From an uncultured Gammaproteobacteria bacterium (lineage in GTDB: Bacteria > Pseudomonadota > Gammaproteobacteria > Xanthomonadales > SZUA-36): a stretch of DNA of 64,000 bases. The notes beneath the pieces are model-generated. The model searched no databases and was not told the DNA's origin. It worked only from the letters and a program-made list of their open reading frames with translations. The position numbers were made by a program, and so were the translations under genes. The stretch lies in contig CAVVLP010000010.1 in the NCBI GenBank assembly GCA_963749115.1, positions 254,366 through 318,365 of the forward strand. The letters are read 5' to 3'. Positions 8,118 to 64,000 of this stretch are shown in pieces (positions within the stretch are counted from its first letter, which is position 1; the number at the start of each line of letters is the position of its first letter).

Positions 8118-8134
8118 GGTCTGTACCTCGATCC

Positions 8135-49566: not shown

Positions 49567-51510
49567 ATGAGCAAAACTTATCCCGTTATCCCTGCAGCCA
49601 GGGAGCGCACCCACGTTGACCAACAACGATACCAAGAAATGTACAGCCAGTCGGTTGAGGACAATACCGGCTTCTGGTCTGAACAAGCACGTCGAATCAA
49701 CTGGATAAAACCATTCAGCAAGGTTAAAGATGTTTCCTGGGATCGAAAGGATGTATATATCCGCTGGTTTGAAGACGGCACACTCAATGCCTGTTACAAC
49801 TGCATAGATCGCCATCTTGAAAAACGTGCTGACCAGACCGCCATCATCTGGGAAGGTGATGACCCGGCCCGTGACTTGCATATCAGTTACCGCGAATTGC
49901 ATCAACGTGTCTGCCGCATGGCCAATGTACTCAAGGAACTCGGGACCAAACGCGGGGATCGTGTCACTCTCTACATGCCAATGATTCCAGAGGCTGCCGT
50001 AGCAATGCTGGCATGCGCTCGTATCGGTGCTGTCCATTCTGTCGTGTTTGGTGGTTTTTCACCGGACGCACTGGCCGGTCGTATTGTTGATTGCCAGTCC
50101 AACATTCTCATCACCGCAGACGAAGGTCTACGCGGTGGCAGGGCCATCCCCCTCAAGAAAAACGTCGATGCCGCCTGTGAACGTGACGGGGTCATGGATA
50201 TTCTCGAATCGATACTGGTGGTTCGTAACACCGGGAATGACGTATCCATGGATGCTGGCCGTGACCATTGGCTGCATGAAGCGGAAGCCGATGTTTCGGA
50301 TGATTGCCCCTGTGAAGAGATGGGTGCAGAAGATCCTTTATTCATTCTCTACACCTCGGGCTCAACAGGAAAACCTAAAGGCGTTCTGCATACCACCGGT
50401 GGTTACATGGTGTATGCCTCATTTACCCATGAAATGGTTTTTGACTACCAGGATGGCGATATCTACTGGTGCACAGCGGATGTTGGCTGGGTAACAGGTC
50501 ATAGTTATATCGTTTATGGTCCACTGGCCAATGGTGCGACCACAATTATGTTTGAGGGCGTGCCCAACTATCCCGATACCAGCCGTTTCTGGCAGGTTTG
50601 TGACAAGCACGAAGTCAATATCTGCTATACCGCACCTACCGCGATACGCGCATTGATGCGTGATGGCGATGATCCCGTTAAACGCACATCGAGGAAATCC
50701 TTGCGCCTGCTGGGCAGTGTCGGCGAACCGATCAATCCGGAAGCATGGGAATGGTACTACCACGTGGTTGGCGACGGCCGTTGCCCGATCGTTGATACCT
50801 GGTGGCAAACAGAGACCGGCGGCATCATGATCAGTCCGTTACCGGGTGCAACGCCATTGAAGCCCGGATCCGCTACCTTCCCGTTACCCGGCATCATGCT
50901 GGATATCGTAGATAACGAAGGCAACGTTCTTGACGGAGCAGTCGAAGGCCAATTGGTTATCACCGATAGCTGGCCAGGACAAATGCGCAGCGTCTATGGC
51001 GATCACCAGCGTTTCATTGACACTTATTTCTCAACGTTTGAAGGCATGTACTTTACAGGTGATGGTTGCAGACGTGATGAAGATGGCTACTACTGGATTA
51101 CCGGCCGTGTTGATGACGTACTCAACATATCCGGACACCGCATGGGAACGGCGGAGGTCGAAAGTGCATTGGTATCCCACCCCCTGGTCGCAGAATCAGC
51201 GGTCGTCGGTTACCCACACGATATCAAGGGACAGGGCATCTATGTCTACGTCACCCTGGTCGCCGATGCAGAACCCAGCGAAGAATTGCGTGCAGAATTA
51301 CGCAACTGGGTACGCAAAGAAATCGGCCCGATCGCCACACCCGACCTGATCCAATGGGCACCCGGCCTGCCGAAAACCCGTTCCGGTAAAATCATGCGCC
51401 GTATCCTGCGCAAAATCGCCGAAAACGACTATTCCAACCTGGGCGACACCTCAACCCTGGCCGAACCGGAAGTAGTCCAAAACCTGGTCGAGGGCAGAAT
51501 GAACCGCTAA
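49567..51510 (+). CDS. acs: acetyl-CoA synthetase
   Basis: Trimmed to [25 protein letters not shown]-binding motif, C-terminal [16 protein letters not shown]. Confidence 0.95.
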
Positions 51511-51539
51511 CCAGCCCACCACGTTCTACTAAAGCAAGA

Positions 51540-51568
51540 AAATCCCCGCGAAAGCGGGGATTTTTTTA
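51540..51568 (+). terminator. rho-independent terminator of acs
   Basis: ATCCCCGC-GAAA-GCGGGGAT followed by TTTTTT. Confidence 0.8.
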
Positions 51569-51876: not shown

Positions 51877-51939
51877 CATTAACGTCTGAATTTACCGGCG
51901 CCAGCATCGCTGGCGTCCGCGTTTAATGATTTGTTAAGT
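51877..51939 (-). other. attC site (63 bp, short class)
   Basis: CATTAAC GTCTGAATTTACCGGCG CCAGC-ATC-GCTGG CGTCCGCGTTTAATGATTT GTTAAGT. Confidence 0.75.
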
Positions 51940-52160
51940 GCCGTATGCTCCAATCTTTCAGCCAACCAGACTTTTATGATGGACTGTCGGGTTACGCCTA
52001 CACGTTTAGCTTCCCTATCCAGTCGTTCAACCATCCAGGCAGGAAAATCTACATTGACCCTTTTTTGTTCTTGTAGGGGTCGCCGCGCCTTGGTCAGGTC
52101 CAACGATTCTGTAATGTCTTTACCTTCATCAAATTTTCGTTCAAAAGTTTTAGCTTTCAT
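51879..52160 (-). CDS. ribbon-helix-helix (CopG/BrnA-like) antitoxin
   Basis: VNVDFPAWMVERLDREAKRVGVTRQSIIKVWLAERLE. Overlaps the upstream BrnT gene. Its 3' end runs into the attC. Confidence 0.7.
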   Translation of the reverse strand: MKAKTFERKFDEGKDITESLDLTKARRPLQEQKRVNVDFPAWMVERLDREAKRVGVTRQSIIKVWLAERLEHTALNKSLNADASDAGAGKFRR

Positions 52161-52407
52161 ACAATGTCACCTCTTCGTCTCGCGACCGCCGAACAGAGAT
52201 CAACCGGATTTTTCCGTTTCTGTAAGTGATTACAGCGGACCAGTGTTTCTGGTCAATAATGCCGATTTCGAGAAACCGTGGCTCATCCAGAGTTTTCGCA
52301 GGAACCTCTAGTAAGCTCGAATCATCCCAAAGAGCTTGGGCCGCAGTGAAATCTATACCGTGTTTTTGAAGATTGGACTGACTCTTTGATTCATCAAATT
52401 CGAGCAT
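52150..52407 (-). CDS. brnT: BrnT-family (DUF497) toxin
   Basis: MLEFDESKSQSNLQKHGIDFTAAQALWDD...IRLISVRRSRDEEVTLYES. Confidence 0.8.
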   Translation of the reverse strand: MLEFDESKSQSNLQKHGIDFTAAQALWDDSSLLEVPAKTLDEPRFLEIGIIDQKHWSAVITYRNGKIRLISVRRSRDEEVTLYES

Positions 52408-52550
52408 GGTATAGTTATTATACCTTTATTAAGCTTGGCGCTAAAGATTCCGAGGCATTTAACGCCGAGCTCTGCGGTAAATTTGGAGCGCAGCGCAAAA
52501 TTTAACCGACAGCAGCGCCTTGCTTGCTGCCTCTGTGCAGACGGAAAGAT

Positions 52551-52958
52551 CTAGTTTTCACTACTTGCCCCGGGCTTATGAAACTCAAGCACATTTCCAT
52601 CAGGGTCGCGGACAAAAAAGTAATGAGCTCCACCAAATTTTACACTTTCGGTAATCTCAATCCCAAGTTCTTCAAGTTGATGCTCTACATTTTCAGGATT
52701 ATTAATTTCAAGAGCGACGTGTGTGTAACCAGCGTGTTTGATAGCGTCGTCCATTAACACATTCTTGGGTGAGGCATCGTCTGATACATTGATAATCAGA
52801 TTAATGTTCACACCTGAAGGGTGTTCCATTATTGCTACCGGCTCGGGTCCAACAGGACCAATAATGAACTTAAATCCGAGTTTTTCATAAAATTCTCGAG
52901 AAACGTTCAGATCTCTGATGCGTAAACCAATATGGTTAATTCGAATTATTTCTTTCAT
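52551..52958 (-). CDS. VOC/glyoxalase-family protein
   Basis: Trimmed to MKEIIRINHIGLRIRDLNVSREFYEKLGF. C-terminal YFFVRDPDGNVLEF. Confidence 0.8.
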   Translation of the reverse strand: MKEIIRINHIGLRIRDLNVSREFYEKLGFKFIIGPVGPEPVAIMEHPSGVNINLIINVSDDASPKNVLMDDAIKHAGYTHVALEINNPENVEHQLEELGIEITESVKFGGAHYFFVRDPDGNVLEFHKPGASSEN

Positions 52959-53021
52959 ATTTACTCCACTTTCAAGTCTAACTGTTGTCGACACTTGGCC
53001 CGACTATTACTTACGTTAATT

Positions 53022-53270
53022 TCAATTGACCAATTTATCGGTAATTCGATTAACGATAGGAGTCATCACAAGTACTGCCGGATAAGCTACAATAAATCTC
53101 ACAACCCAAGCAGATAACCAGCGTTTTGCAAAGCTTTTTTCAATACCGGTATTCATAACGGTCATTACCAGTGAAATAACAAAGCTCATTCCAAGTACCA
53201 TTAAGATACTGAATACTCTGTTCTTGTGTCTCCGGCTGACCTTCACTTTGACAGTTTCACCTTTAACCAC
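53022..53270 (-). CDS. DUF2798-like small membrane protein
   Basis: FSILMVLGMSFVISLVMTVMNTGIEKSFAKRWLSAWVVRFIVAYPAVLVMTPIV. Confidence 0.6.
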   Translation of the reverse strand: MVKGETVKVKVSRRHKNRVFSILMVLGMSFVISLVMTVMNTGIEKSFAKRWLSAWVVRFIVAYPAVLVMTPIVNRITDKLVN

Positions 53271-54127
53271 TCATCGAATGGTGTAAATGGAGTTGATATT
53301 ATTTCACTGCCTGCATCAAGGCTTTCACTGGAGCCAGGCCCCATATAGGTATGATCTTCGAAATAACCAAGCATCTGGCCAATTTCTGCTGCTCCTGGGA
53401 AAAAGCTGGTAAAGGTCTCTTGCGGTACCTGTACCGCAAAATACTCTTCCCCTGCTTGGTTAAACGCATTAACTATATCTAAGAAGCTGTATAAGCCTGC
53501 AGCCATTGAAAGTGTTTTTCCATTACTCTTATCTGGGTTTGAAAAAACACTGTCTACCAGATTTCCAATCTCTTCAATGGCTCCCATGTGAATCACCTTA
53601 GCATTTGGATCTATGGGGATTGCCCATCCCTTAGCACCGTTGCCCAGATCTGATGGGGCCATGTTGCCAATCAGATTTTCGAAATAAAAAGAAGGTTGGA
53701 CTATGGTATGTAACGGGAACTCTGCTGAACGAACAATTGGGTCAATCCGCGCTTTATTGGTAAAGTGTGGCACCTTCCATTTCCCTTTTGAGATCGCCTC
53801 TACATCTGGTAATGATGACCATACGAAATGCTCCACTCCAGCACTCTGAGCAGCATCTATAGCTGCTTTGGCTTGAGCCATTTCGTCAGTTCCTTCCTGC
53901 CAGAAATTGGTTACGACAAAGACACCATATACGCCTTTAAGTGCCTCCAATAAAGACTGCTCATCATCGAGGTTTGCTGCTACGACCTCATCAGCTGGGC
54001 CTTCATATTTGGCGGGGTTCCGTGTTAATGCTCTTACTCGATATTTCCCATTATTTTTAAGATAACGTACTACGGATCCACCCTGTGAACCTGTTGCACC
54101 AAAAACAGCAATTGTTTTAATAGACAT
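53243..54127 (-). CDS. NmrA-family NAD(P)-binding protein
   Basis: Trimmed to MSIKTIAVFGATGSQGGSVVRYL. Divergent from the LysR gene. Confidence 0.8.
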   Translation of the reverse strand: MSIKTIAVFGATGSQGGSVVRYLKNNGKYRVRALTRNPAKYEGPADEVVAANLDDEQSLLEALKGVYGVFVVTNFWQEGTDEMAQAKAAIDAAQSAGVEHFVWSSLPDVEAISKGKWKVPHFTNKARIDPIVRSAEFPLHTIVQPSFYFENLIGNMAPSDLGNGAKGWAIPIDPNAKVIHMGAIEEIGNLVDSVFSNPDKSNGKTLSMAAGLYSFLDIVNAFNQAGEEYFAVQVPQETFTSFFPGAAEIGQMLGYFEDHTYMGPGSSESLDAGSEIISTPFTPFDEWLKVKLSK

Positions 54128-54228
54128 ACTCTCCTCCTCTAAGTTTGTATAGCCTTCACTATAGCAACACTCCTCTGATTTGCGTAGAATGAAATAGAAC
54201 AAATCTGTTTTGCGAAATTAGCAAAGGC

Positions 54229-55083
54229 ATGAGCATGAATATAATTTCAATTCGTACTGTGCTGTTGGCAATTGAATTGGGAAGCCTTTCAGCTGCTGGG
54301 GTACAGTTAGGTGTGCCGGCTTCGACCATCAGTCGGCGAGTGAAAGAGCTTGAAACTGAATTGGGTAGAAGACTCATTGTGCGCAGTGGTCGTGGTGTTC
54401 GTCCGGCGGAAGAAGCAAAAGACACATTGTTGAAATTGAGAAATGTCATATTGGTTGTTGATGACTGTTACGCGCCAGAATCATCCATAACAAGGCTTCG
54501 GGTCACCGCTCCACTTGAAATGACCGTTTCACTCCTTCCTAAAGCCATTCCAAAGTTTCTGAAAAATTTCCCCGACGTTGTCATTGAGCTGTTAGGGGAT
54601 GACCGGATCACAGGGTTAATTGAAGCAGACTTTGATCTTGCTATCCGAACTGGAACGCTTAATGATCCTAACCTTATTGGCAAAAGGCTACGCACAAGCA
54701 GTTTCGTATTGGTAGCATCTCCCTCATTGGCCAAAAAGATCACAAGTGTTCAAGTGCTGGCTTCAACACCCATTTTGGAAATTTCTGGGCCGCCATCTGG
54801 TATTTCTGGTCACTGGAAAGGAGAGCCTTTTAATGCGCACCCACCCGTTCTTGCCAAACTAAATACTTTTACTGCTGCATTGCCATGCTTATTCGCAGGT
54901 TTGGCGTATGCACAGATGCCACCCCATCTCGTTCAAGAATTTCTAGATTCAGGTCGCCTTACAGAGGTCTCTCAGGCAAAACTCGACGACATCCCCATAC
55001 ACGCGCTTTACCCGAAACGCCATCGCAATCAGGAAATTATCAGTGCATTTATTATGGAGATTGAAGCCTTATTTGAAACTTAA
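54229..55083 (+). CDS. LysR-family transcriptional regulator
   Basis: HTH LGSLSAAGVQLGVPASTISRRVKELE. 284 aa. The only plus-strand gene in the array. Confidence 0.85.
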   Translation: MSMNIISIRTVLLAIELGSLSAAGVQLGVPASTISRRVKELETELGRRLIVRSGRGVRPAEEAKDTLLKLRNVILVVDDCYAPESSITRLRVTAPLEMTVSLLPKAIPKFLKNFPDVVIELLGDDRITGLIEADFDLAIRTGTLNDPNLIGKRLRTSSFVLVASPSLAKKITSVQVLASTPILEISGPPSGISGHWKGEPFNAHPPVLAKLNTFTAALPCLFAGLAYAQMPPHLVQEFLDSGRLTEVSQAKLDDIPIHALYPKRHRNQEIISAFIMEIEALFET

Positions 55084-55118
55084 CTCTTGAGCGGATCTTA
55101 TTTTTGAGCACGTTCTGC

Positions 55119-55181
55119 AGCTAACGTTTGAGTTAAGCGGCGCCTGCGCAGCAGGCGTCCGTGTTTAATGATTTGTTATGT
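55119..55181 (-). other. attC site (63 bp, short class)
   Basis: AGCTAAC GTTTGAGTTAAGCGGCG CCTGC-GCA-GCAGG CGTCCGTGTTTAATGATTT GTTATGT. Confidence 0.8.
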
Positions 55182-55185
55182 GATA

Positions 55186-55407
55186 CTACGAAGCCCACTT
55201 TAACTCCAGCTTCTTTTCGGAAATTGCGCAGTCCCTAAGATAAAGGTTGATTAGACTCTGGTAGGGTACACCTACTTCTTCAGACAATTTTTTGAAGTAT
55301 TCAATTGTTGGTTTATCAAGCCTAATCGTTACCTGGCTTTTTAAGGCCTTTGCATAAGGATTGGGTTTAGCATCTGAAAAATCGTATTCGTCTCGCATAA
55401 TTATCAC
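55186..55407 (-). CDS. brnA: BrnA-family antitoxin
   Basis: DEYDFSDAKPNPYAKALKSQVTIRLDKPTIEYFKKLSEEVGVPYQSLINLYLRDC. Confidence 0.8.
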   Translation of the reverse strand: MIIMRDEYDFSDAKPNPYAKALKSQVTIRLDKPTIEYFKKLSEEVGVPYQSLINLYLRDCAISEKKLELKWAS

Positions 55408-55688
55408 CGTCTATACAGGGACATTTCTCTCCGGTTAGCTTTGCGGCAAGAAATGACACGAACCAGGCCATGATCGGCCTCAAAACAATGACAAACTAGC
55501 AATAGTCTGAGTTTGGCACTGAGTCCCAGGAGCACAAATCGGTCTTCGGTTTCCGAATGATCAGGGTCTGCGATTAATAGCGCATATTCATCGAAAAAGA
55601 CTGACCTCGCCTCTTCGAAGGATATTCCATGTTTCCGAACGTTGGCCTTATTCTTTGCCTCGTTCCATTCAAACTGGATCACCTTCAT
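55404..55688 (-). CDS. brnT: BrnT-family toxin
   Basis: FEWNEAKNKANVRKHGISFEEARSVFFDE...RVISCRKANRREMSLY. Confidence 0.85.
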   Translation of the reverse strand: MKVIQFEWNEAKNKANVRKHGISFEEARSVFFDEYALLIADPDHSETEDRFVLLGLSAKLRLLLVCHCFEADHGLVRVISCRKANRREMSLYRR

Positions 55689-55728
55689 AGACTACATTGT
55701 AATTACAATGTACGCACGACGCAAATTC

Positions 55729-55791
55729 ACATAACGTCTGAATTAACCGGCGCCTGCGTAGCAGGTGTCCGCGTTTAATGATTTGTTATGC
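55729..55791 (-). other. attC site (63 bp, short class)
   Basis: ACATAAC GTCTGAATTAACCGGCG CCTGC-GTA-GCAGG TGTCCGCGTTTAATGATTT GTTATGC. Confidence 0.8.
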
Positions 55792-56046
55792 CGCGTTGGC
55801 ACTTTCAACTTCCCAGCCTGGAAAGACCAGAACTGCGGGATGACACTCAAGCACTTTTGCCAGAGTTTTGGCACGCTCAACACCCAGATTGATTCGATCA
55901 TTCTCAATAGCAGAAATTGTTGATTGAGGAATCCCTGAGTTTTTTGCCAATTCATTCTGACTCATCCCTTGCAGTTCACGAATGATCCTTACAGACTCAC
56001 CAACGGATACATCAACTCTCTTTCTTGCAGGTTCAAAGTTTCTCAT
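55786..56046 (-). CDS. XRE-family HTH antitoxin (HigA-like)
   Basis: IRELQGMSQNELAKNSGIPQSTISAIENDRINLGVERAKTLAKVL. Confidence 0.75.
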   Translation of the reverse strand: MRNFEPARKRVDVSVGESVRIIRELQGMSQNELAKNSGIPQSTISAIENDRINLGVERAKTLAKVLECHPAVLVFPGWEVESANAA

Positions 56047-56047
56047 G

Positions 56048-56329
56048 TCATTTCTTCCGATAATCATGCGGTGTTAGATCGACAACCTTTATTAGGATTT
56101 CCAAAGCCTCAATTTTATAAATAACTCGATATTTGTGCCCCAGTCTGGATGACCTGAACCCCTTCCACTGTCCACCAAGAGGTTCATCCCGAAATCCGCG
56201 AATTAGTCCGAGGCCTTCTGGGCCGCTAATAGCAACGATGTCTTTCCATTTCTCATATCGCTTCAATATCGCTACGGGTAATTTCTTAAAACGTTTGTTA
56301 AGACTCTTGTGTTCGAGGATTCTCCACAT
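56048..56329 (-). CDS. RelE/ParE-superfamily (HigB-like) toxin
   Basis: FRDEPLGGQWKGFRSSRLGHKYRVIYKIEALEILIKVVDLTPHDY. Immediately upstream of the XRE antitoxin. Confidence 0.75.
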   Translation of the reverse strand: MWRILEHKSLNKRFKKLPVAILKRYEKWKDIVAISGPEGLGLIRGFRDEPLGGQWKGFRSSRLGHKYRVIYKIEALEILIKVVDLTPHDYRKK

Positions 56330-56381
56330 ACTAAATATAGTATATATACCAATTATAGTATTGGCAAGAATTCGGTCAGCA

Positions 56382-56442
56382 ACATAACGTCTAAATTAAC
56401 CGGCGTGGCTTTGCCACTTCCGCGTTTAGTGCCTTGTTATGC
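56382..56442 (-). other. attC site (61 bp, short class)
   Basis: ACATAAC GTCTAAATTAACCGGCG TGGC-TTT-GCCA CTTCCGCGTTTAGTGCCTT GTTATGC. Confidence 0.8.
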
Positions 56443-56444
56443 AT

Positions 56445-57029
56445 TTATTTGCATCCATTGTGTTTTTTCCACATTTCTGCATTATGTCCTTCTGGGATAC
56501 TCTGGCAGGGGTCCTTGGAGTAACCTCTTAATTCGTTGTACAAGATGATTTGTTCATTTGTAAGTATGTTTGGGGTTTGCAGGTGTGTTGATAAATGAAC
56601 CACCCTCAAATTTGCCCGAACATTTTCAATTTTTTGAACAGACTTTTCTAATATTGGTTGGTTTATTGTTCTGTTAGCAAAATTGTTGTTTAACTCCATT
56701 TCAAGACGAATTAATTGCTCTCCAAGATTAACAGCTTCAGCTTTCATGTCATTGTAGATTTTCTGAATTTCTTTTTCCTGCTCATCGGTAAGATGTATTT
56801 CATCTTTCATTTCTAAGATGTGTGCCGGTCCTGGAAAACCATTCAGCTCGGCTGCTTTTGCCAACCCCCATCCGCCTCCTTTTTTTAGCTCATCAATATC
56901 ATCAGGTGATAGACTCCTGATTTTTCTATGCTCTTGACCCACATATTTAGATTTATAGTCCACCTCGGCAGATGTTGATGATGAAAGTATAATTACAATA
57001 AAAACGACTACGCTAAACCAATATTTCAT
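56445..57029 (-). CDS. secreted Spy/CpxP-like (LTxxQ motif) protein
   Basis: Trimmed to MKYWFSVVVFIVIILSSSTSA (signal peptide). HLTDEQEKEIQ and ILTNEQIILYNEL motifs. Confidence 0.55.
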   Translation of the reverse strand: MKYWFSVVVFIVIILSSSTSAEVDYKSKYVGQEHRKIRSLSPDDIDELKKGGGWGLAKAAELNGFPGPAHILEMKDEIHLTDEQEKEIQKIYNDMKAEAVNLGEQLIRLEMELNNNFANRTINQPILEKSVQKIENVRANLRVVHLSTHLQTPNILTNEQIILYNELRGYSKDPCQSIPEGHNAEMWKKHNGCK

Positions 57030-57058
57030 ATTCGCTTTCAATTCCCAATTTGTCTGAT

Positions 57059-57154
57059 GCATAACGTTTGAGTTAAGCGGCGCAGAAAGGCGCAGCATTT
57101 TTGCGTCCGGTGGAGGGCCGTAGCGCCGGAACGAACTTGAACGTTTTGTTATGC
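57059..57154 (-). other. attC site (96 bp, long class)
   Basis: GCATAACGTTTGAGTTAAGCGGCG...GTCCGGTGGAG...CGCCGGAACGAACTTGAACGTTTTGTTATGC. Confidence 0.8.
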
Positions 57155-57424
57155 ATTTTTCTCCGCAAAACGGCCCGTTACATACTTGTGCAAAACACTA
57201 GACATAAGTGTTTGGTACGGCAATCCCTCAATAAGAGCTCTCTCTTGCAGTAACACTAAATCCAATTCTGATATGCGAATATTTACGCGTTTGTCTTTCT
57301 TAAAGGTGGCCTTGGCTGCCGCCTTATATTTTGCAATATTTGCTGGTTTTGAGACGGAAACCCATTCGTCTTTTTCATAAGACTCAAGGATTTCCTTCTC
57401 TTCTTTATTTAACTTCTTACTCAT
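57149..57424 (-). CDS. antitoxin partner of the BrnT-family toxin (RHH/BrnA-like)
   Basis: KRVNIRISELDLVLLQERALIEGLPYQTLMSSVLHKYVTG. Lies 5 nt downstream of the toxin gene. Confidence 0.7.
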   Translation of the reverse strand: MSKKLNKEEKEILESYEKDEWVSVSKPANIAKYKAAAKATFKKDKRVNIRISELDLVLLQERALIEGLPYQTLMSSVLHKYVTGRFAEKNA

Positions 57425-57429
57425 TACAT

Positions 57430-57702
57430 TTACACCTCGAGATATTTTCTAGTGGCCTTGCGGCTCGGAATAATAGTCTTTAGAAATATCTCAGTTTCAG
57501 TCTCAACAAATGGAACCAGGTACGCATAGTTACCTATGTCCAATATGAACATACGCTGGTTTGGATATTTAGATGAATTCGGGTGTTTGACAACATCCAG
57601 GATTTCATCTCGTTCAATATGAAAAATCACACGCTCAAATGATATCCCTCGTTCCCGGATCAACTGGGCATTCTTTTCAGAATTCCATACAAAATAGCGC
57701 AT
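57430..57702 (-). CDS. BrnT-family (DUF497) toxin
   Basis: MRYFVWNSEKNAQLIRERGISFERVIFHI...LKTIIPSRKATRKY. Confidence 0.75.
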   Translation of the reverse strand: MRYFVWNSEKNAQLIRERGISFERVIFHIERDEILDVVKHPNSSKYPNQRMFILDIGNYAYLVPFVETETEIFLKTIIPSRKATRKYLEV

Positions 57703-57746
57703 GCATATAATTTATCACATTGTGTGCCTTTTGTAATCACTAGTAT

Positions 57747-57834
57747 GCATAAAGTCTGCCTTCAACCGCCTATTTGGAGCGAAAGACCGAAGCGAAGTAG
57801 CGGAAAATGGGTCGGCTGGAAGGCATTGTTATGC
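57747..57834 (-). other. attC site (88 bp, divergent)
   Basis: GCATAAAGTCTGCCTTCAACCGCC...GGGTCGGCTGGAAGGCATTGTTATGC. Confidence 0.7.
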
Positions 57835-58308
57835 CTCAGCTTTACGGAGTTTAAGCACCCTGCGTAGTAAAAAAATGCAGAGGACTATTGAGAATATAAA
57901 GTACAGATGGACAATGACGGACGGTTGACTCGCGAGCAAATCAGACACGTCTGTGCCTTCCCGCCAGAACCCACCTTGGTAGTTGTATGCCAAATCAACC
58001 AGGGGTGAGACTAATCCGACGAATACTGCGGGTAGCCACAAACGGCGGTGGACGCTCATATTCATCAAAATGAGATAGGCGGCGGTTGCCCAAACAAGCG
58101 CAGAAAAAAATGGGGCGGCATCTATTAGCCATGTCCCGCCATCGCCCCGGATCACATAACCAAAATAGAAGCCAACGTCCTCTCGGATGCCAGGAAACAA
58201 GCGGACCTCCCTGAGTTCCACGCCTTGAAGTAAAGCGGTTAATGCATGCGAACCCTCGTGACGAAAGGTAGTCACCAAAATTAGTAATGCTGCGAGAATT
58301 AGGGGCAT
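57829..58308 (-). CDS. polytopic membrane protein with HExxH motif (putative M50B-like metalloprotease)
   Basis: Trimmed to MPLILAALLILVTTFRHEGSHALTALLQG. About 4 TM segments. Confidence 0.5.
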   Translation of the reverse strand: MPLILAALLILVTTFRHEGSHALTALLQGVELREVRLFPGIREDVGFYFGYVIRGDGGTWLIDAAPFFSALVWATAAYLILMNMSVHRRLWLPAVFVGLVSPLVDLAYNYQGGFWREGTDVSDLLASQPSVIVHLYFIFSIVLCIFLLRRVLKLRKAEA

Positions 58309-58329
58309 TATTTGTCCTTCGCAATTGAG

Positions 58330-58421
58330 GCATAACGTCTTAGTTAAGCGGCGTAAAACTGCGCAGCAGTGTCCGGTGGAGCCGCGTTGCTGCCGGAACG
58401 TACTTGAACGTTTTGTTATGC
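58330..58421 (-). other. attC site (92 bp, long class)
   Basis: GCATAACGTCTTAGTTAAGCGGCG...GTCCGGTGGAG...GCCGGAACGTACTTGAACGTTTTGTTATGC. Confidence 0.8.
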
Positions 58422-58640
58422 CTGCTTTGCCCAAGTAAGGTTGATTTTTCGATGATTGGAGACACAGTCTTTCAAGTACAAATTAATTAGGCTCTGGTAC
58501 GGGATGCCAGTATCTTCTGACATTGTTTTGAAGTAGCTAATTACATCCTGGCCCATACGAATGGTAACCTGCTTCTTGAGTTTTGAAGCATATGGATTCT
58601 TTCGGCTTTTCATTTTTGAAAAATCATATTCAGCTTTCAT
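58416..58640 (-). CDS. brnA: BrnA-family antitoxin
   Basis: YDFSKMKSRKNPYASKLKKQVTIRMGQDVISYFKTMSEDTGIPYQSLINLYLKDC. Confidence 0.8.
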   Translation of the reverse strand: MKAEYDFSKMKSRKNPYASKLKKQVTIRMGQDVISYFKTMSEDTGIPYQSLINLYLKDCVSNHRKINLTWAKQA

Positions 58641-58644
58641 ATTC

Positions 58645-58923
58645 TCACCTACGATAAAATTTACGCTCAGCTGCAGTGGCTTTCCGTGCTGATATGAGTC
58701 GAATTACAGAACCTGATTTTCGTTCGCAATGACAAACGACAAGAACTTGAGGCTTAATACTCATACCAAGCAAAATAAATCGTTCTTCCTGACCTGAGTG
58801 TTCTTCATCATCGTACTGTGTTGCATAATCATCGAAGAACACTGATTGGGCTTCTTCAAATGAAACGCCGTGTTTCTTTTGATTTGCTTTGTCCTTCCTT
58901 GGATCCCAATCAAACTTAAGCAT
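58645..58923 (-). CDS. brnT: BrnT-family toxin
   Basis: FDWDPRKDKANQKKHGVSFEEAQSVFFDD...IRLISARKATAAERKFY. Confidence 0.85.
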   Translation of the reverse strand: MLKFDWDPRKDKANQKKHGVSFEEAQSVFFDDYATQYDDEEHSGQEERFILLGMSIKPQVLVVCHCERKSGSVIRLISARKATAAERKFYRR

Positions 58924-58964
58924 ACATATATTGTATTTACATTATATGTATACGTCAACTAAAG

Positions 58965-59057
58965 GTATAACGTTTGAATTAACCGGCGCGCCACTGGACG
59001 TTTCCGCGGAAACGCGCCACCGCACTTTCACGCGTCCGGTTGAATGGCTTGTTATAT
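58965..59057 (-). other. attC site (93 bp); identical to 61462-61554 from the ATAAC core onward
   Basis: GTATAACGTTTGAATTAACCGGCGCGCC...GCGTCCGGTTGAATGGCTTGTTATAT. Confidence 0.8.
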
Positions 59058-59075
59058 GACGTGCCCATAATGAGG

Positions 59076-59324
59076 TTACTTTCCAAAATGCTTCTCCAGG
59101 AACTTGTCGGCCAACTCCGTTCCTTCTTCTGTGAAAACGACTGACTTTTGCTTTCCAACAGGATCAAATATCCAGCCTTTCTGGTACAGAATATCCAACA
59201 GATCCCAATCCATTCCTTTCCAGGCGCGAGCGGTTCCCATTTTATTCTGAGTTGCGGTGAGTGACAGAATAGCCAGTGCGGCTTCAGCCAATTTTTCTTC
59301 ATCAAGGGTATTGGAAAATGTCAT
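59076..59324 (-). CDS. small cassette protein (DUF6429-like by memory), copy A
   Basis: GAGGA then MTFSNTLDEEKLAEAALAILSLT...RAWKGMDWDLLDILYQKGWIFDPVGKQKSVVFTEEG. Confidence 0.55.
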   Translation of the reverse strand: MTFSNTLDEEKLAEAALAILSLTATQNKMGTARAWKGMDWDLLDILYQKGWIFDPVGKQKSVVFTEEGTELADKFLEKHFGK

Positions 59325-59358
59325 TGTAAGAATCCTCGTGTCTGAGTTTCCCGTGTTC

Positions 59359-59445
59359 ATATAACGTCTTAGTTAAGCGGCGCAGCGGAGCTGCGTCCGG
59401 TGGAGCCAGCTCGCTGGCGGAACGTACTTGAACGATTTGTTATGC
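59359..59445 (-). other. attC site (87 bp, long class)
   Basis: ATATAACGTCTTAGTTAAGCGGCG...GTCCGGTGGAG...GGCGGAACGTACTTGAACGATTTGTTATGC. Confidence 0.8.
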
Positions 59446-59847
59446 AACTGCCCGCTTACCTGAAATAGACCATAATAAAAACAGTCCAAATGCCACGCCA
59501 AGAGCAGATGGTAGCCGCACCCCCCAAAGTGGCCAGGAACTAAACCAGTCGATGATCTGAATCAGACCCTCAGAGCCGATGACCACAAGAAACACCGCAC
59601 TCGTTAACGCCAGTATGGCAAGGACCCTGAACGTGATTGGTGTGCGAGAAGCCACGGCAGAGAACCACAACAAAACAGCCAGTAGCACACGAGTAGATGC
59701 AGCCCACCATATACCTGAACCGACCATTACCTCGAGGACATAGTTCAAGAGTTCAGACGGGAATACTACGGCGATGGCAGACGCCACCACGATAATTACT
59801 GCAAATATCGCTAGGGCAATTGGCATGTATTTTCTACTTTGATGCAT
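59440..59847 (-). CDS. hypothetical 4-TM membrane protein
   Basis: 135 aa, hydrophobic throughout, occupies the whole cassette. Confidence 0.5.
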   Translation of the reverse strand: MHQSRKYMPIALAIFAVIIVVASAIAVVFPSELLNYVLEVMVGSGIWWAASTRVLLAVLLWFSAVASRTPITFRVLAILALTSAVFLVVIGSEGLIQIIDWFSSWPLWGVRLPSALGVAFGLFLLWSISGKRAVA

Positions 59848-59939
59848 AACGTCTGAATTAACCGGCCGCCGGAGCGCGAAGCGCGGAGGGCACCCGCAAG
59901 CGTAGCTTGCGGGCGGTCCAGTTGACCGAAGGGTTATGC
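59844..59939 (-). other. attC site (96 bp, divergent GC-rich centre)
   Basis: GCATAACGTCTGAATTAACCGGCCGCC...GGTCCAGTTGACCGAAGGGTTATGC. Confidence 0.75.
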
Positions 59940-59948
59940 TCGGCGCAT

Positions 59949-60320
59949 CTACGCCTCAACGATGTCTGCCTTCGTACTTTGCATTAGTGCCACTACTTCC
60001 TTACGTTCAGGCTGAGGGACTTGAAGAGTGTCCAACGTGTCATTGAGGTATCCCAGGAATGCAGACCAATCGCTTTCATTGATTTTCATCCCTTTGTGGG
60101 TGACTTTCATATCTCGACCGGTGTAGTACAGTGGACCGCCTGCACTCGAGCATAGAAAATCAATCAGGATCTGCCGTGAGCGCCTTAGACCATCTTCACC
60201 CCGATGCTGGTAGAAGCGTCCAAGTTGCGCATCCGCTTGCATGCGAGGCAAAAGGTCATTGGCTACTGCAGCGATGGCGTCATACCCGCCGAGTCGTTCA
60301 TAGAGAGTCTTGTTATTCAT
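59949..60320 (-). CDS. group 1 truncated haemoglobin (trHb)
   Basis: LYERLGGYDAIAAVANDLLPRM...FLCSSAGGPLYYTGRDMKVTHKGMKI. Confidence 0.8.
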   Translation of the reverse strand: MNNKTLYERLGGYDAIAAVANDLLPRMQADAQLGRFYQHRGEDGLRRSRQILIDFLCSSAGGPLYYTGRDMKVTHKGMKINESDWSAFLGYLNDTLDTLQVPQPERKEVVALMQSTKADIVEA

Positions 60321-60348
60321 AATTACTCCTCCTGTTGGTTAGGAAAGG

Positions 60349-60444
60349 GCATAACGTTTGAGTTAAGCGGCATAAAAATGCGCAGCATTTTTATGTCCGG
60401 TGGAGGGCCGCAGGCCCGGAACGAACTTGAACGATTTGTTAGGC
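60349..60444 (-). other. attC site (96 bp, long class)
   Basis: GCATAACGTTTGAGTTAAGCGGC...GTCCGGTGGAG...CCCGGAACGAACTTGAACGATTTGTTAGGC. Confidence 0.8.
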
Positions 60445-60489
60445 ATTTACTCCCCCTAACTATCATATCTTTCTCTGTCTGAAACACAT

Positions 60490-60922
60490 TTACAATCTCT
60501 CACCGTACTTTTCCATCCATTCCCCAAGACCCTTCAAAGAATCCAATGTCACTTCTTCTTCAATTTCTTTTATAAGCCCATTCTCGAAGCAATATCTAGC
60601 TTCTCCTTCTACTACCAGGTCTGGTGTATTTGCAAGTGAATAGGTGCAACGCCACTGCCGGGCAAGGCGCTCTCCCTCAGTTACTGGAGAAGTTAGCGCC
60701 ACTAAATTCCTATTTTCGAACCGCCTGTCAGTATTGGCCACATCTGCTTTCAAAAAAGCTATTACAGCAGCGCTACCTTCAGACTTCAGGATCTGGACCG
60801 CCAACATTAAAATATGTCACATCCTCTGCTAGATATTGTTCCAGCCTAGACCAATCATCATCTTCTACCGCATCTTCAAAAGCGGCTGCAAATTTGTTAA
60901 ATGTGTCGATGTTATCCATATG
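60490..60922 (-). CDS. NTF2/SnoaL-like protein (one apparent frameshift near 60785)
   Basis: MDNIDTFNKFAAAFEDAVEDDDWSRLEQYLAEDVTYFNVGGPDPEV (my translation), then ORF 60490-60807. Confidence 0.5.
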
Positions 60923-60925
60923 AAT

Positions 60926-61021
60926 GCCTAACGTCTTAGTTAAGCGGCCCTAAAGGGCGCAGCCTTTTTGGGTCCGGTGGAGGCGCGCAGCGCCGGAACG
61001 AACTTGAACGATTTGTTATGT
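60926..61021 (-). other. attC site (96 bp, long class)
   Basis: GCCTAACGTCTTAGTTAAGCGGCC...GTCCGGTGGAG...CGCCGGAACGAACTTGAACGATTTGTTATGT. Confidence 0.8.
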
Positions 61022-61045
61022 GACCGGCTGAATGGAAATGGAAAA

Positions 61046-61402
61046 CTAAAGTTCAACAATTGTATTAAATCCGCCAAATATCATTCGCTTTCCATCAAAG
61101 GGCATCTTACTTAAATCCCAACCCTGCAATCGAGGATCTTTCATTGCAGCTTTGTTTCCAACATCCCGGGCTTCTCGAGATGGCCAAATAATCCACGAGA
61201 AAACAACGTCCTCTCCTTCCTCACACTTAACAGCCATGGGCAGAGATGTAATCTCACCGTCAGGCACATCATCTGCCCAATTTTCTACGACTGACAAAGC
61301 ACCATGGGCTTTGAATACAACGGCTGACTCTTCCGCAAGCTGTATGTACTCCGGCTTGTTCTTCCTCGGAACAGCCAGCACGTATCCATCGACATATGGC
61401 AT
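61046..61402 (-). CDS. DUF1428-family protein
   Basis: Trimmed to MPYVDGYVLAVPRKNKPEYIQLAEESAVVFKAHGAL...FDGKRMIFGGF. Confidence 0.7.
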   Translation of the reverse strand: MPYVDGYVLAVPRKNKPEYIQLAEESAVVFKAHGALSVVENWADDVPDGEITSLPMAVKCEEGEDVVFSWIIWPSREARDVGNKAAMKDPRLQGWDLSKMPFDGKRMIFGGFNTIVEL

Positions 61403-61461
61403 AGGTTTGTCTCCTTCATTCTGTTTCATGGTGGCACAAATGCGTCAATTTATTGATTGGC

Positions 61462-61554
61462 ACATAACGTTTGAATTAACCGGCGCGCCACTGGACGTTT
61501 CCGCGGAAACGCGCCACCGCACTTTCACGCGTCCGGTTGAATGGCTTGTTATAT
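61462..61554 (-). other. attC site (93 bp); duplicate of 58965-59057
   Basis: ACATAACGTTTGAATTAACCGGCGCGCC...GTTATAT. Confidence 0.8.
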
Positions 61555-61572
61555 GACGTGCCCATAATGAGG

Positions 61573-61821
61573 TTACTTTCCAAAATGCTTCTCCAGGAAC
61601 TTGTCGGCCAACTCCGTTCCTTCTTCTGTGAAAACGACTGACTTTTGCTTTCCAACAGGATCAAATATCCAGCCTTTCTGGTACAGAATATCCAACAGAT
61701 CCCAATCCATTCCTTTCCAGGCGCGAGCGGTTCCCATTTTATTCTGAGTTGCGGTGAGTGACAGAATAGCCAGTGCGGCTTCAGCCAATTTTTCTTCATC
61801 AAGGGTATTGGAAAATGTCAT
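61573..61821 (-). CDS. small cassette protein (DUF6429-like), copy B
   Basis: Identical to 59076-59324. Confidence 0.55.
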   Translation of the reverse strand: MTFSNTLDEEKLAEAALAILSLTATQNKMGTARAWKGMDWDLLDILYQKGWIFDPVGKQKSVVFTEEGTELADKFLEKHFGK

Positions 61822-61855
61822 TGTAAGAATCCTCGTGTCTGAGTTTCCCGTGTTC

Positions 61856-61951
61856 ATATAACGTTTGAGTTAAGCGGCGTAAAACTGCGCAGCAGTTTTA
61901 TGTCCGGTGGAGGCGCGCAGCGCCGGAACGAACTTAAACGATTTGTTATGT
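61856..61951 (-). other. attC site (96 bp, long class)
   Basis: ATATAACGTTTGAGTTAAGCGGCG...GTCCGGTGGAG...CGCCGGAACGAACTTAAACGATTTGTTATGT. Confidence 0.8.
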
Positions 61952-61953
61952 TT

Positions 61954-62247
61954 CTACCTGCCACCATGACCACTACTTTTCCGCGCCAAACTTGCTGCGT
62001 AAGTGTCACTTATGGTGGGGTGATTGCCCACTTGCCGCATCTTCTTTTGTGCGAAATAGTCCTCTCGATTTAAGTAAATAGCCATTGAAGCGCCGACCAC
62101 TGGAACCAACCAAATAAAAAGTGTTTGATAAAGACGACGCTGTTTCACTTTAAAATAAGTGTGAAAGACAACGTAAGTTGCAACCAAGTTGAGAAGAACT
62201 ACGAATACTGAAATCCCAACAATAAGGTACAGAGCTAAGTTTTGCAT
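61954..62247 (-). CDS. hypothetical 2-TM membrane protein
   Basis: 97 aa, MQNLALYLIVGISVFVVLLNLVATYVVF. Confidence 0.45.
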   Translation of the reverse strand: MQNLALYLIVGISVFVVLLNLVATYVVFHTYFKVKQRRLYQTLFIWLVPVVGASMAIYLNREDYFAQKKMRQVGNHPTISDTYAASLARKSSGHGGR

Positions 62248-62264
62248 TCAGGACTCTCTTGTAA

Positions 62265-62360
62265 ACATAACGTTTGAGTTAAGCGGCGTAAAAATGCGCA
62301 GCATTTTTACGTCCGGTGGAGGCGCGCAGCGCCGGAACGAACTTGAACGATTTGTTATGC
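62265..62360 (-). other. attC site (96 bp, long class)
   Basis: ACATAACGTTTGAGTTAAGCGGCG...GTCCGGTGGAG...CGCCGGAACGAACTTGAACGATTTGTTATGC. Confidence 0.8.
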
Positions 62361-62741
62361 ATATCCTAATAGCCCCACTTGGCTTGCTGTGAACAGAATC
62401 CACAAGAAGCCAATCAAACTAGCAAAACCCAGAGGCAGGTTGAGTATATGGTTACCAAACCGCCTTTTGTTTATATATACCAGTAACAAGGACATAACCA
62501 TCATAGCTGCACATATTATGAAAACACCCAAAACCCCGCGTTCCATGGTTATGCCATAGCCAGAAAAGTAAGAACGACCAACAAAGCCTGAATCTAGTTG
62601 AACACCAGAAGTTATTTTGGAAACCGTTTGTGCGTAGTGCAAATCGTCATTGCGTATACTTTGATGAGAATAAAATGTGTGAATAAAAAGAAAAAAACCA
62701 CTCAGTATCAAAGTCAGGCTAAGTGTTTGTATTTTAGTCAT
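62355..62741 (-). CDS. hypothetical 4-TM membrane protein (attI-proximal cassette)
   Basis: 128 aa, first cassette after the attI-like junction. Confidence 0.45.
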   Translation of the reverse strand: MTKIQTLSLTLILSGFFLFIHTFYSHQSIRNDDLHYAQTVSKITSGVQLDSGFVGRSYFSGYGITMERGVLGVFIICAAMMVMSLLLVYINKRRFGNHILNLPLGFASLIGFLWILFTASQVGLLGYA

Positions 62742-62751
62742 GGTGCAATAT

Positions 62752-62758
62752 GCATAAC
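62752..62758 (-). other. attI-cassette junction core (GTTATGC on the minus strand)
   Basis: A lone GCATAAC with no palindromic partner arm to its right, located between the first cassette and the intI remnant. Confidence 0.5.
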
Positions 62759-63004
62759 GTCATTTAGGTGGCAATTCAGGCATATCAGGCTCTTTGTCCA
62801 GATATGCCCACTCTGAAATCTCATTCTGTCTAGAAACTTTCTGTTTTGCAAAAGGTATATTGATTGTCTGATCTTGAAAGGTTCTTGTTATCAGTCATTT
62901 CTGCCTGCTATGACGTGTGCTTTGCCAACAAAACTGGATGTAAATCACTGATATTTTCGCTTGAACGGGAGTTACAAGCTGGTTTCCTCTTTAAAAGGCC
63001 GCCT

Positions 63005-63109
63005 ATGTCAAAACTGCTGGATAACGTCAGAATTGGTCTTTGCGTTCATCACTGTACGATCCAAAGCAAGAAGTCCTGCGTGCTATGGATTAGGAGTTTA
63101 GTTCTTTGA
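63005..63109 (+). pseudogene. intI: integron integrase remnant (N-terminal ~34 codons only)
   Basis: MSKLLDNVRIGLCVHHCTIQSKKSCVLWIRSLVL*. By eye it aligns to the IntI N-terminal pattern LLDxVR..(I)RV(R)HYS(I)RTE.AY..WI(K/R)RFI.FH. It is divergent from the cassettes, as expected for intI. Confidence 0.45.
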
Positions 63110-63211
63110 AGGACTGCTCATGGCCGTTTTCTTCCATGGGTGTCCGTATTGGGTTCTTTGTGCAAGCAAAGAAAAGTCACTCGCGCATAAGGCGCGAAAT
63201 CCCCTTAAAAA

Positions 63212-63994
63212 CTAACCCGCCAACCCGCTATGCTCCAAAGGCCTCTCCCGATGCATCAACAACCACTCAGCGCCTTCCTCTAACGCAGCATTACCCAGGG
63301 CCCTTAGCACCGCACGGCGAAACGTTACATCATCTGAACTATCCAGCAGACGTCGTGCATTGGCCAAAATCCCACGCATGAAGCGGTATTGCTTAATCAA
63401 CTCTTTCTCTGCCTTTTTGTGCGAATACGCATCACGAACACCGGCAATCAAGGGAAAAACACCCATCAAAACCAACAAATAAGTCCGATGAGTATCCGCC
63501 ATATCTGTACCTGCGATTGCCAATACAACAGCAATCAGCATACCCACCCATAAGGCGGTTTTGCCAAGAAAAGTAGTACGTTTGAATCTAACCGCTTTTT
63601 CCTGCTCCTTGCTCTGATAGTAGGATAGCTGACCGGTCTGTCCGGCTTCATCACCAACCCATTGCTCAATGACCCAGTCCACCCATGCTTCCGGCGGCAC
63701 CTGGTCACGACTACGTGAAAGACTGACATTACGCATGACGTGACGTATCCAACCCAGGTCAACATCCTGTTTTTGCAGAAAGTTGTCATAGGCGAATTCA
63801 GCCGACTGCACATCAATTACACCTGCCAGGCTCCAGTAAAACTGTACCCGTAAACCCTCCGCCAGGGCCCGGTAGTCGAGGTGTTTGCGGTGCCATTGCC
63901 GTCGCTCTCCAATTTTGTAAAGCAAAAAACCGGCAAGAAAAGCGAACAAAAAGATATTGACCAGGAAGTCGAGCCCCTCAAGTTCCGAGTACAT
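63212..63994 (-). CDS. multi-TM membrane protein with a SLATT/DUF4231-like region (N-terminus may lie beyond the window)
   Basis: QLSYYQSKEQEKAVRFKRTTFLGKTALWVGMLIAVVLAI...TYLLVLMGVFPLIAGV...YSHKKAEKELIKQYRFM. This is the helix / TM / TM / helix layout I associate with SLATT/DUF4231. A further hydrophobic segment lies at the N-terminus (LDFLVNIFLFAFLAGFLLY). Confidence 0.45.
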   Translation of the reverse strand: MYSELEGLDFLVNIFLFAFLAGFLLYKIGERRQWHRKHLDYRALAEGLRVQFYWSLAGVIDVQSAEFAYDNFLQKQDVDLGWIRHVMRNVSLSRSRDQVPPEAWVDWVIEQWVGDEAGQTGQLSYYQSKEQEKAVRFKRTTFLGKTALWVGMLIAVVLAIAGTDMADTHRTYLLVLMGVFPLIAGVRDAYSHKKAEKELIKQYRFMRGILANARRLLDSSDDVTFRRAVLRALGNAALEEGAEWLLMHRERPLEHSGLAG

Positions 63995-64000
63995 GATGAA

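Follow-up and report, generated by a model that had tools for sequence, protein, structure and literature searches.

Probable remnant of a chromosomal integron with a 15-cassette array and a truncated integrase gene in an uncultured gammaproteobacterium

attC-site clusters that lack an integron integrase (CALIN) represent integron-derived loci without an integrase gene, and loss of this gene, intI, from a complete integron is one of the origins proposed for them (Cury et al. 2016, PMC4889954). In that survey, intI pseudogenes were detected near 15 of 279 CALINs by means of a C-terminal IntI profile only, and more than ten attC sites were present in 6.6% of the CALINs (PMC4889954). For Xanthomonas, chromosomal integrons featuring a truncated or deleted intI and a persisting array are described in PMC12444791, which refers to Gillings et al. 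2005. In this study, a stretch of 64,000 nucleotides (nt) of contig CAVVLP010000010.1 (assembly GCA_963749115.1) from an uncultured Gammaproteobacteria bacterium, in the following referred to as the window, was analyzed. The region between the acetyl-CoA synthetase gene acs and a SLATT/DUF4231-like gene very probably represents the remnant of a chromosomal integron, which retained an array of 15 cassettes, lost intI by deletion and still carries attC and attI sites that are potential IntI substrates. A truncated or replaced integrase leaving a CALIN-like array had already been proposed in a first-pass annotation of this DNA, and the proposal was supported when the attC sites, the cassette junction, the intI stub and the missing catalytic part were tested.

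By IntegronFinder definitions, a CALIN comprises two or more attC sites whose spacing stays below 4 kb, with intI missing from the surrounding 4 kb. The locus is accordingly a CALIN: its 15 sites show a largest spacing of 3.2 kb, and within the window no intI was found on either side of the array, over 51 kb to the left and 1.6 kb to the right. It resembles other CALINs in this spacing, in the lack of an adjoining integrase and in cassettes of mostly unknown function, none of which was identified here as a resistance gene. In contrast to them, it keeps attI and a 5' intI relic, which, being still attached, point to intI loss as the origin and make the locus a clean case of this CALIN route; with 15 sites, it is also larger than most CALINs. 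Regarding the components of a complete integron, a predicted attI adjoining intI is present at position 62758, and only residues 1–34 remain of an intI that would encode the IntI-specific domain and the catalytic C-terminus. Since the profile applied by Cury et al. covers the C-terminus only, an N-terminal stub of this kind would have gone on record as 'no recognisable pseudogene', and the share of CALINs originating from integrase loss may be underestimated in such surveys. Sedentary chromosomal integrons were defined by presence in all genomes of a species or by more than 19 attC sites (PMC4889954); the locus described here possesses 15 sites, is shared with one 99.2%-identical strain and is absent from 80 related species.

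The Xanthomonas integrons belong to the same broad group of Gammaproteobacteria (relatives of the analyzed genome are labelled Lysobacterales/Xanthomonadales) and, according to PMC12444791, likewise kept their array after a large deletion had destroyed intI. They differ in being located downstream of ilvD, in a less extreme truncation and in arrays that are usually shared by strains with the same lesion, whereas the locus in the window lies between acs and the SLATT-like gene and differs in content between near-identical strains. Moreover, its absence from 80 related species representatives suggests that the element is not ancestral to the group. The sedentary integrons of Vibrio (V. cholerae superintegron, IntIA) share the resemblance among attC sites inside one array, the many small open reading frames (ORFs) of unknown function and the presence of several toxin-antitoxin cassettes, which, according to PMC13108822, stabilize the array; they possess a working intI and tens to hundreds of cassettes, as opposed to 15 cassettes and no working integrase here. 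The class 1 platform corresponds to the locus in the divergent orientation of intI and cassettes, the crossover sequence RYYYAA/C (slashes mark crossover or break points throughout) and the orientation of attC to intI. The distance between crossover and start codon amounts to 247 nt here versus 136 nt in class 1, and neither a transposon backbone nor a cassette promoter was identified at the window locus. Integrase-less remnants are therefore already known, and the locus is a clear but fairly ordinary example; its modest added value lies in an unusually clear anatomy, in which attI and the 5' relic are kept and the deletion ends within ancestral DNA, as well as in the hint that an orphan attI persists and may still be used.

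Between positions 51877 and 62360, 15 imperfect palindromes of 61–96 nt are present, each lying just 3' of a short minus-strand ORF or a small group of such ORFs. A covariance model was built from the alignment of 14 of them, the fifteenth being an identical duplicate. With filters off, a search of the entire window with this model gave precisely these 15 sites (52–93 bits, E-values of 1e-11 to 1e-22), all on the plus strand and at the places where the first-pass annotation had seen palindromes of this size; no further site was found in the 64 kb, the next match scoring 10.9 bits (E 2.7). The sites, numbered from the predicted attI, are as follows:

51877-51939, plus strand: attC of cassette 15, short type, 63 nt; 57.4 bits; fold z score -3.5
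55119-55181, plus strand: attC of cassette 14, short type; 57.1 bits
55729-55791, plus strand: attC of cassette 13, short type; 67.2 bits
56382-56442, plus strand: attC of cassette 12, short type, 61 nt; 52.4 bits
57059-57154, plus strand: attC of cassette 11, long type, 96 nt; 88 bits
57747-57834, plus strand: attC of cassette 10, degenerate R' box GCATAAA; 58.5 bits
58330-58421, plus strand: attC of cassette 9; 88.5 bits
58965-59057, plus strand: attC of cassette 8; 65.3 bits
59359-59445, plus strand: attC of cassette 7; 73.6 bits
59844-59939, plus strand: attC of cassette 6; 52.5 bits
60349-60444, plus strand: attC of cassette 5; 82.6 bits
60926-61021, plus strand: attC of cassette 4; 84.4 bits
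61462-61554, plus strand: attC of cassette 3; 61.2 bits
61856-61951, plus strand: attC of cassette 2; 87.7 bits
62265-62360, plus strand: attC of cassette 1; 93.2 bits

attC sites are organized as R''-spacer-L''...L'-spacer-R'. Read on the minus strand, a long site follows this layout with GCATAAC-AAATC-GTTCAAG...CTTAACTC-AAAC-GTTATG. The end boxes noted previously were confirmed for 14 of the 15 left boxes, which are RYYYAAC-like, the GCATAAA at 57747 being a small departure from the consensus; right boxes occur as GTTATGC/GTTATGT, GTTAGGC, GTTAAGT and GTTATAT. R and L boxes pair in 93.8% of the alignment cells, as compared to 32–44% when the 3' partner is slid by one to three columns, compensatory changes on both sides were found in five box pairs, and the centre of the sites is variable. 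The 3' L arm contains one unpaired base (the L'' base), which is G in the long sites and T in four short ones. This position in the plus-strand 3' arm indicates that the plus strand would be the folding bottom strand and the minus strand the coding strand of the cassettes, in agreement with the ORFs. As an outside control, the model was applied to two plasmid-borne class 1 integrons, where it found the attC sites of aac(6')-IIc (E 2e-5) and arr-3 (E 0.011), both oriented to intI1 as the window sites are to the stub. Rfam reported no family for the window sites, neither at the gathering score nor at E-values up to 10. Based on their structure and on the cross-detection of class 1 sites, the palindromes are thus classified as predicted attC sites.

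The array is followed by a lone GCATAA/C (62752–62758, plus strand) without a partner arm, at which the covariance model gives no site. Its earlier interpretation as an attI x cassette junction was corroborated, since homology breaks at AAC/GT in comparisons with three contigs from elsewhere. Two short metagenome contigs of the European Nucleotide Archive (ENA), L081 and L082, also encode the product of cassette 1 and are 99.6–99.8% identical to the window from 62265 to 62760/62761; in both of them, homology begins at AC/GTTATGC, a different cassette follows, and an attC upstream of cassette 1 replaces the right-hand sequence of the window. On the other side, a contig from the Joint Genome Institute (JGI), L089, shares the sequence beyond the junction. 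The boundary at 62758 is hence set by two independent comparisons, from the cassette side and from the attI side, and represents a genuine cassette boundary next to DNA that is not an attC, in line with an attI. The sequence TTTAGG is located 3–4 nt beyond the crossover, as is likewise the case in attI1, a resemblance only. A sigma-70-like match at 62774–62747 is weak and at chance level, takes its -10 element from cassette bases and is not conserved in L089. The features on the integrase side of the junction are as follows:

62758-63004, no strand assigned: predicted attI and intI-attI intergenic region; this region and the initial 40 nt of the stub make up a module with about 90% identity to L089
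63005-63109, plus strand: intI 5' relic of 34 codons plus stop, assigned by hidden Markov model (HMM), single-sequence and shuffle tests
63110-63153, no strand assigned: 44 nt between the stub and an ancestral element, without IntI signal in any frame and without match in relatives

The divergent ORF noticed previously about 250 bp from the junction starts with an ATG at 63005, 247 nt from C62758 and on the strand opposite to the cassettes, reads MSKLLDNVRIGLCVHHCTIQSKKSCVLWIRSLVL and stops after 34 codons. A profile search of this ORF had been recommended in the first-pass annotation. Pfam and NCBIfam scans of the stub, the surrounding ORF of 81 amino acids (aa) and the next ORF of 91 aa gave no match, and tblastn with IntI1 and VchIntIA gave none at the stub even at an E-value of 100. 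Since curated profiles are blind to the stub, its assignment was based on purpose-built tests. For this, 150 diverse IntI representatives (50% clustering) were aligned with IntI1, an N-terminal HMM was derived from the first 70 residues of the 148 sequences covering that region, and 1539 stop-to-stop segments of at least 25 aa from the six frames of the window served as targets. The stub segment was the best of the 1539 (7.5 bits, E 0.37), with an alignment that opens at the start codon of the stub and at position 3 of IntI. Moreover, it was the top match for 38 of the 148 single IntI N-termini, as compared to 10 for the runner-up segment, with a best E-value of 1.8e-4 (P0142; 14/32 identities). 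Its maximum Smith-Waterman score was 69 versus at most 48 in 1500 composition-preserving shuffles, and its mean score over all IntIs was 32.3 versus 16.9 +/- 1.2. Based on these score statistics, the expected strand and the distance of 247 nt from the crossover, the ORF is accepted as a predicted relic of an IntI N-terminus, and the likeness reported earlier is thereby substantiated. The stub carries the changes R13C, Y17C, T21S, E22K, Y25C, R31S and F32L at positions where IntI conservation amounts to R 81%, Y 72%, T 99%, E 80%, Y 100%, R 72% and F/Y 96%, respectively, which marks it as a decayed relic and not a working fragment. No further IntI piece was detected by a full-length IntI HMM in any frame of the 64 kb, and tblastn with IntI1 and VchIntIA revealed no intI elsewhere in the window.

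A few further observations concern the stub and its relatives. The sequence TAACGTCAGAATTGG at 63022–63036 (codons DNVRIG) resembles the attC R'-L' arm TAACGTCTGAATTAACCGG, probably by chance; it falls within the 40 nt that are fully conserved in L089. An 'FFHG' in another frame after the stub was rejected as a continuation of intI, being 25 nt out of register with the IntI FH motif and lacking HMM support. Many of the best IntI-like representatives (P0128–P0136 and others) are 420–580 aa long and carry an N-terminal extension of about 110–280 residues, around 150 in most, before the IntI-like part.

Both flanks of the element are conserved and consist of the following features:

49567-51510, plus strand: acs (acetyl-CoA synthetase), conserved left flank; Pfam ACAS_N/AMP-binding on the identical product
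51532-51568, plus strand: acs terminator hairpin (stem and T-run), ancestral intergenic DNA; 92% match just after acs in L003
51569-51876, no strand assigned: spacer of 308 nt between terminator and last attC, also present in the contig L085 of a second strain
63154-63204, minus strand: ancestral hairpin/terminator element 3' of the flank gene, terminator-like by scan, cut in its 3' arm at 63153/63154
63212-64000, minus strand: SLATT/DUF4231-like right-flank gene, conserved; the C-terminal 260+ codons, the gene running off the window

A scan of 185,579 species representatives for the flank gene yielded 80 loci from Lysobacterales/Wenzhouxiangellaceae-type metagenome-assembled genomes with protein identities of 52–88%. 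In most of these loci acs is convergent and close to the flank gene, with distances of 20–120 nt in several of them (L003, L004, L014, L022, L061). The larger gaps in L007, L017, L027, L047 and L055 are occupied by ordinary-looking ORFs, as deduced from a length listing, and are free of attC and IntI. Across all 80 loci, neither an attC (by the covariance model) nor an IntI was detected, and the 10 kb following the flank gene in the relatives were likewise free of IntI. Since acs and the flank gene are adjacent in relatives whose loci lack attC and IntI, the region of 51.5–63.2 kb represents a lineage-specific insertion in this comparison. The minus-strand gene occupying the space of intI was confirmed to be unrelated to IntI; it is conserved and located next to acs in relatives. 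The hairpin element 3' of it has matches of 90–98% in L001, L002, L006, L010 and L013, and also in L086, which all stop within the 3' arm. Such an end inside a hairpin arm suggests that the event removing intI also cut ancestral DNA, and argues for a deletion after insertion. For the host, an uncultured marine or sediment gammaproteobacterium, the insertion means a recent gain of 11.7 kb of accessory genes, about 11 kb of which are the array.

The following course of events is proposed. A chromosomal integron would have entered this lineage between acs and the SLATT/DUF4231-like gene, and a deletion or rearrangement with its far end inside the ancestral hairpin would then have removed the rest of intI (about 290 codons). 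Subsequently, the stub would have decayed at positions that are near-invariant in working IntI. As the locus would be without recombination of its own, any later gain, loss, duplication or reshuffling of cassettes would need an IntI from elsewhere in the genome or a transient one, acting on folded bottom-strand attC and on attI. Servicing in trans by another IntI is plausible.

Several points weigh against this reconstruction. The HMM E-value of the stub is weak when taken alone, and the stub escapes both Pfam PF13495 and the integron-integrase models of NCBIfam. An intact close relative of its parent gene was not found, and no protein in a collection of 5.8 billion shares three 5-mers with the 81-aa ORF; exact-product look-ups of the 81-aa and 34-aa ORFs also found nothing. 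The 308 nt to the left of the array (no match in the 80 relatives' loci) and the 44 nt to the right of the stub are unassigned and obscure the insertion mechanism and the exact deletion endpoints. Furthermore, the statement that no integrase is encoded in cis covers only this window and, by synteny, the 10 kb that follow the flank gene in relatives.

Cassette exchange within the population was observed in several comparisons. Homology of cassettes 1, 2 and 4 to outside copies (94.7–99.8% identity) ends at core sites, each unit being bounded at G/TT. Besides the copies of cassette 1 described above, cassette 4 has copies of 96.6–97% identity in other arrays (L087, L088) and cassette 2 has one of 94.7% identity in another context (L090). 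Their occurrence in other orders elsewhere indicates that the window cassettes are discrete units that, as deduced from these alignments, are or recently were mobile. In L090 (positions 1–52), the sequence ...CCCAATAATTGTCA/GTTATGT stands before the copy of cassette 2; it corresponds to neither attC nor the attI of the window and may represent another attI or a secondary site. Cassettes 3 and 8 constitute a duplication of exactly one cassette length; their 94-aa ORFs are identical, and a repeat finder gives 100% identity over 300 nt. A comparison of the locus in related strains, suggested in the first-pass annotation, was possible with a contig of GCA_049684235.1 (L085), which encodes the identical acs product and is 99.2% identical to the window as far as CATTAAC at 51883. 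Beyond this point a different attC follows, and the terminal HigBA-like cassette of L085 is only 75% similar to any window cassette. The distal boundary of the array is thus apparently fixed, with content differing between very close strains.

How far exchange continued after the loss of intI depends on how these differences are read. The array could also be frozen, in which case they would stem from events before the loss, from other integrons with the same cassettes, or from homologous recombination or deletion between similar attC sites. This is a substantial minority possibility: heavy decay of the stub and a frameshifted cassette gene are expected of an old, unserviced array, no IntI is visible in the 64 kb, and Xanthomonas strains with the same intI lesion usually have identical arrays (PMC12444791). 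However, the strain with the 99.2%-identical flank has another last cassette, with another attC, joined at the identical R' boundary, and break points are site-specific (AAC/G) and not scattered over homologous attC stretches. These site-specific differences, an attI-proximal cassette that is nearly identical to copies found elsewhere, and the duplicate of exactly one cassette length tend to favour an ongoing turnover of cassettes. Comparisons between strains and metagenomes offer a concrete place to ask whether the orphan attI and its array keep exchanging cassettes via a trans-acting integrase.

An explanation according to which the locus never had an intI, the cassettes having been inserted by a trans-acting IntI at a secondary attG-type GTT site next to an ORF that is IntI-like by chance, is very improbable. 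Cassette integration outside att sites is documented in 10.1101/2022.09.11.507474 and Cury et al. 2016 (PMC4889954), and curated profiles do not see the stub; against this stands the IntI likeness of the stub, which beats all 1500 shuffles and every other window segment, begins at IntI residue 3 and is encoded on the strand and side expected for intI. Moreover, the attI-plus-stub module recurs at 90% identity with a different cassette at the same base, and the flanking 395 nt have no counterpart in the intergenic DNA of relatives. Ordinary contiguous DNA on both sides, as left by an attG insertion, was not found in the comparison with the relatives' intergenic regions, among which there is no true empty-site strain. 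A full-length intI hidden by sequencing or assembly frameshifts has a negligible chance. Nothing but the 34 open codons speaks for it, the stop of the stub and the stop codon of the convergent gene are no more than 102 nt apart (51 of them belonging to an element shared with relatives), and the HMM and tblastn searches of every frame, as given above, detected nothing else, so that this reading is refuted for the present sequence.

The preferred reading, an integron remnant with deleted intI, can be extended by means of L089, which was found via a 21-mer from the stub; a metagenome scan with a 22-mer from attI found nothing, L089 having one mismatch in that stretch. This contig carries the sequence corresponding to 62758–63044 (attI, intergenic region and stub codons 1–13) at 89.6% identity, including the fully conserved first 40 nt of the stub. 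Homology starts exactly at AAC/GTC, behind a different first cassette, and ends after codon 13; 43 nt later, repeats of 187 nt and a tRNA-Arg locus follow, which corresponds to 11.8–15.4 kb of the window (80% identity over genes, 91% over repeats). Provided that L089 is not chimeric, the same attI platform would be present in another species, at another locus and with a shorter stub. The C at position 13, usually R, is common to both stubs and is compatible with an inactivation before the window and L089 copies diverged, which is no proof thereof. On this basis, 62758–63044 might be a maintained docking platform without integrase that moves between genomes and loci and is served by an IntI encoded elsewhere. 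This idea is speculative and rather unlikely; it builds on the module of about 90% identity beside tRNA-Arg in L089, with its shorter stub and different cassette at the same base, and on arrays differing between 99.2%-identical strains. Were the truncation older than those differences, the capture of cassettes by an orphan attI would be a normal mode of existence and not decay.

The 15 attC sites delimit 15 minus-strand cassettes, 14 of 394–688 nt and one of 3.2 kb:

51883-55124, minus strand: cassette 15, 3.2 kb, six genes (BrnA/BrnT, glyoxalase, DUF2798, NmrA-like, divergent LysR; Pfam)
55125-55734, minus strand: cassette 14, BrnT/BrnA toxin-antitoxin pair (Pfam)
55735-56387, minus strand: cassette 13, HTH_3 antitoxin-like ORF (Pfam) and 93-aa partner without family match; HigBA-like by arrangement
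56388-57064, minus strand: cassette 12, LTXXQ-motif protein (Pfam)
57065-57752, minus strand: cassette 11, BrnT/BrnA-like pair (Pfam)
57753-58335, minus strand: cassette 10, M50B-like membrane protein, weak (Pfam E 2e-5, under the curated cut-off)
58336-58970, minus strand: cassette 9, BrnT/BrnA pair (Pfam)
58971-59364, minus strand: cassette 8, DUF6429 protein (Pfam), duplicate of cassette 3
59365-59849, minus strand: cassette 7, 135-aa membrane-like protein, no family
59850-60354, minus strand: cassette 6, bacterial-like globin (Pfam)
60355-60931, minus strand: cassette 5, SnoaL-like gene broken by a frameshift into 60779-60919 and 60490-60807 (Pfam on both pieces)
60932-61467, minus strand: cassette 4, DUF1428 protein
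61468-61861, minus strand: cassette 3, DUF6429 protein, duplicate of cassette 8
61862-62270, minus strand: cassette 2, 97-aa membrane-like protein
62271-62757, minus strand: cassette 1 (attI-proximal), 128-aa membrane-like protein

Across the array, four BrnT/BrnA pairs and one HigBA-like pair represent the toxin-antitoxin content, accompanied by a globin, a DUF1428 protein, an LTXXQ protein, DUF6429 (twice), the frameshifted SnoaL-like gene and several family-less ORFs, a gene content typical of chromosomal arrays. Exact-product look-ups of the DUF6429 protein and the globin found nothing. The overlapping SnoaL-like ORFs (60490–60919) are interpreted as a pseudogene or a sequencing error. Cassette 15 may be a composite or fusion of cassettes. 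Between its BrnT and glyoxalase genes an R'-like half site, ATTTAAC (52449–52455), lacks a partner arm and may be a relic attC within the distal cassette. The earlier count of 15–16 cassettes therefore stands at 15: a sixteenth attC near 52447 was rejected, as its fold is no better than that of shuffled sequences (z +0.3) and the covariance model gives no match.

Further observations concern the surroundings of the array and other parts of the window. An inverted repeat of 26 nt (51684–51709/51848–51873, 88% complementary) encloses 138 nt, and 3 nt lie between its end and the last attC; it is present in L085, absent from the loci of the 80 relatives and single-copy in the window. Its interpretation as a miniature inverted-repeat transposable element or transposon end was discarded, since there is just one copy of it and the other end of the element carries no partner. 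In L086, from a relative with 88.5% identity, an irregular array of about a dozen 9-mers of the types TTGAACGGC and GTGAACGGC is located 3' of the flank gene (1440–1621). At 8129–11706 of the window, a tandem duplication of 1.79 kb (94–99% identical) lies in a stretch of lower G+C content (0.47) and comprises two genes for MscS-type mechanosensitive channels (8135–9154 and 9924–10796). Weak matches resembling the C-terminus of IntI1 at 8.5 and 10.3 kb were traced to this duplicated channel gene and do not represent recombinases. Furthermore, three to four repeat units of 187 nt (11883–12544) abut the tRNA-Arg(CCG) gene (12468–12544, minus strand), and the L089 copy contains a short match to the 3' end of the tRNA, CCCGACAGGATT, which suggests relics of att sites of integrative elements.

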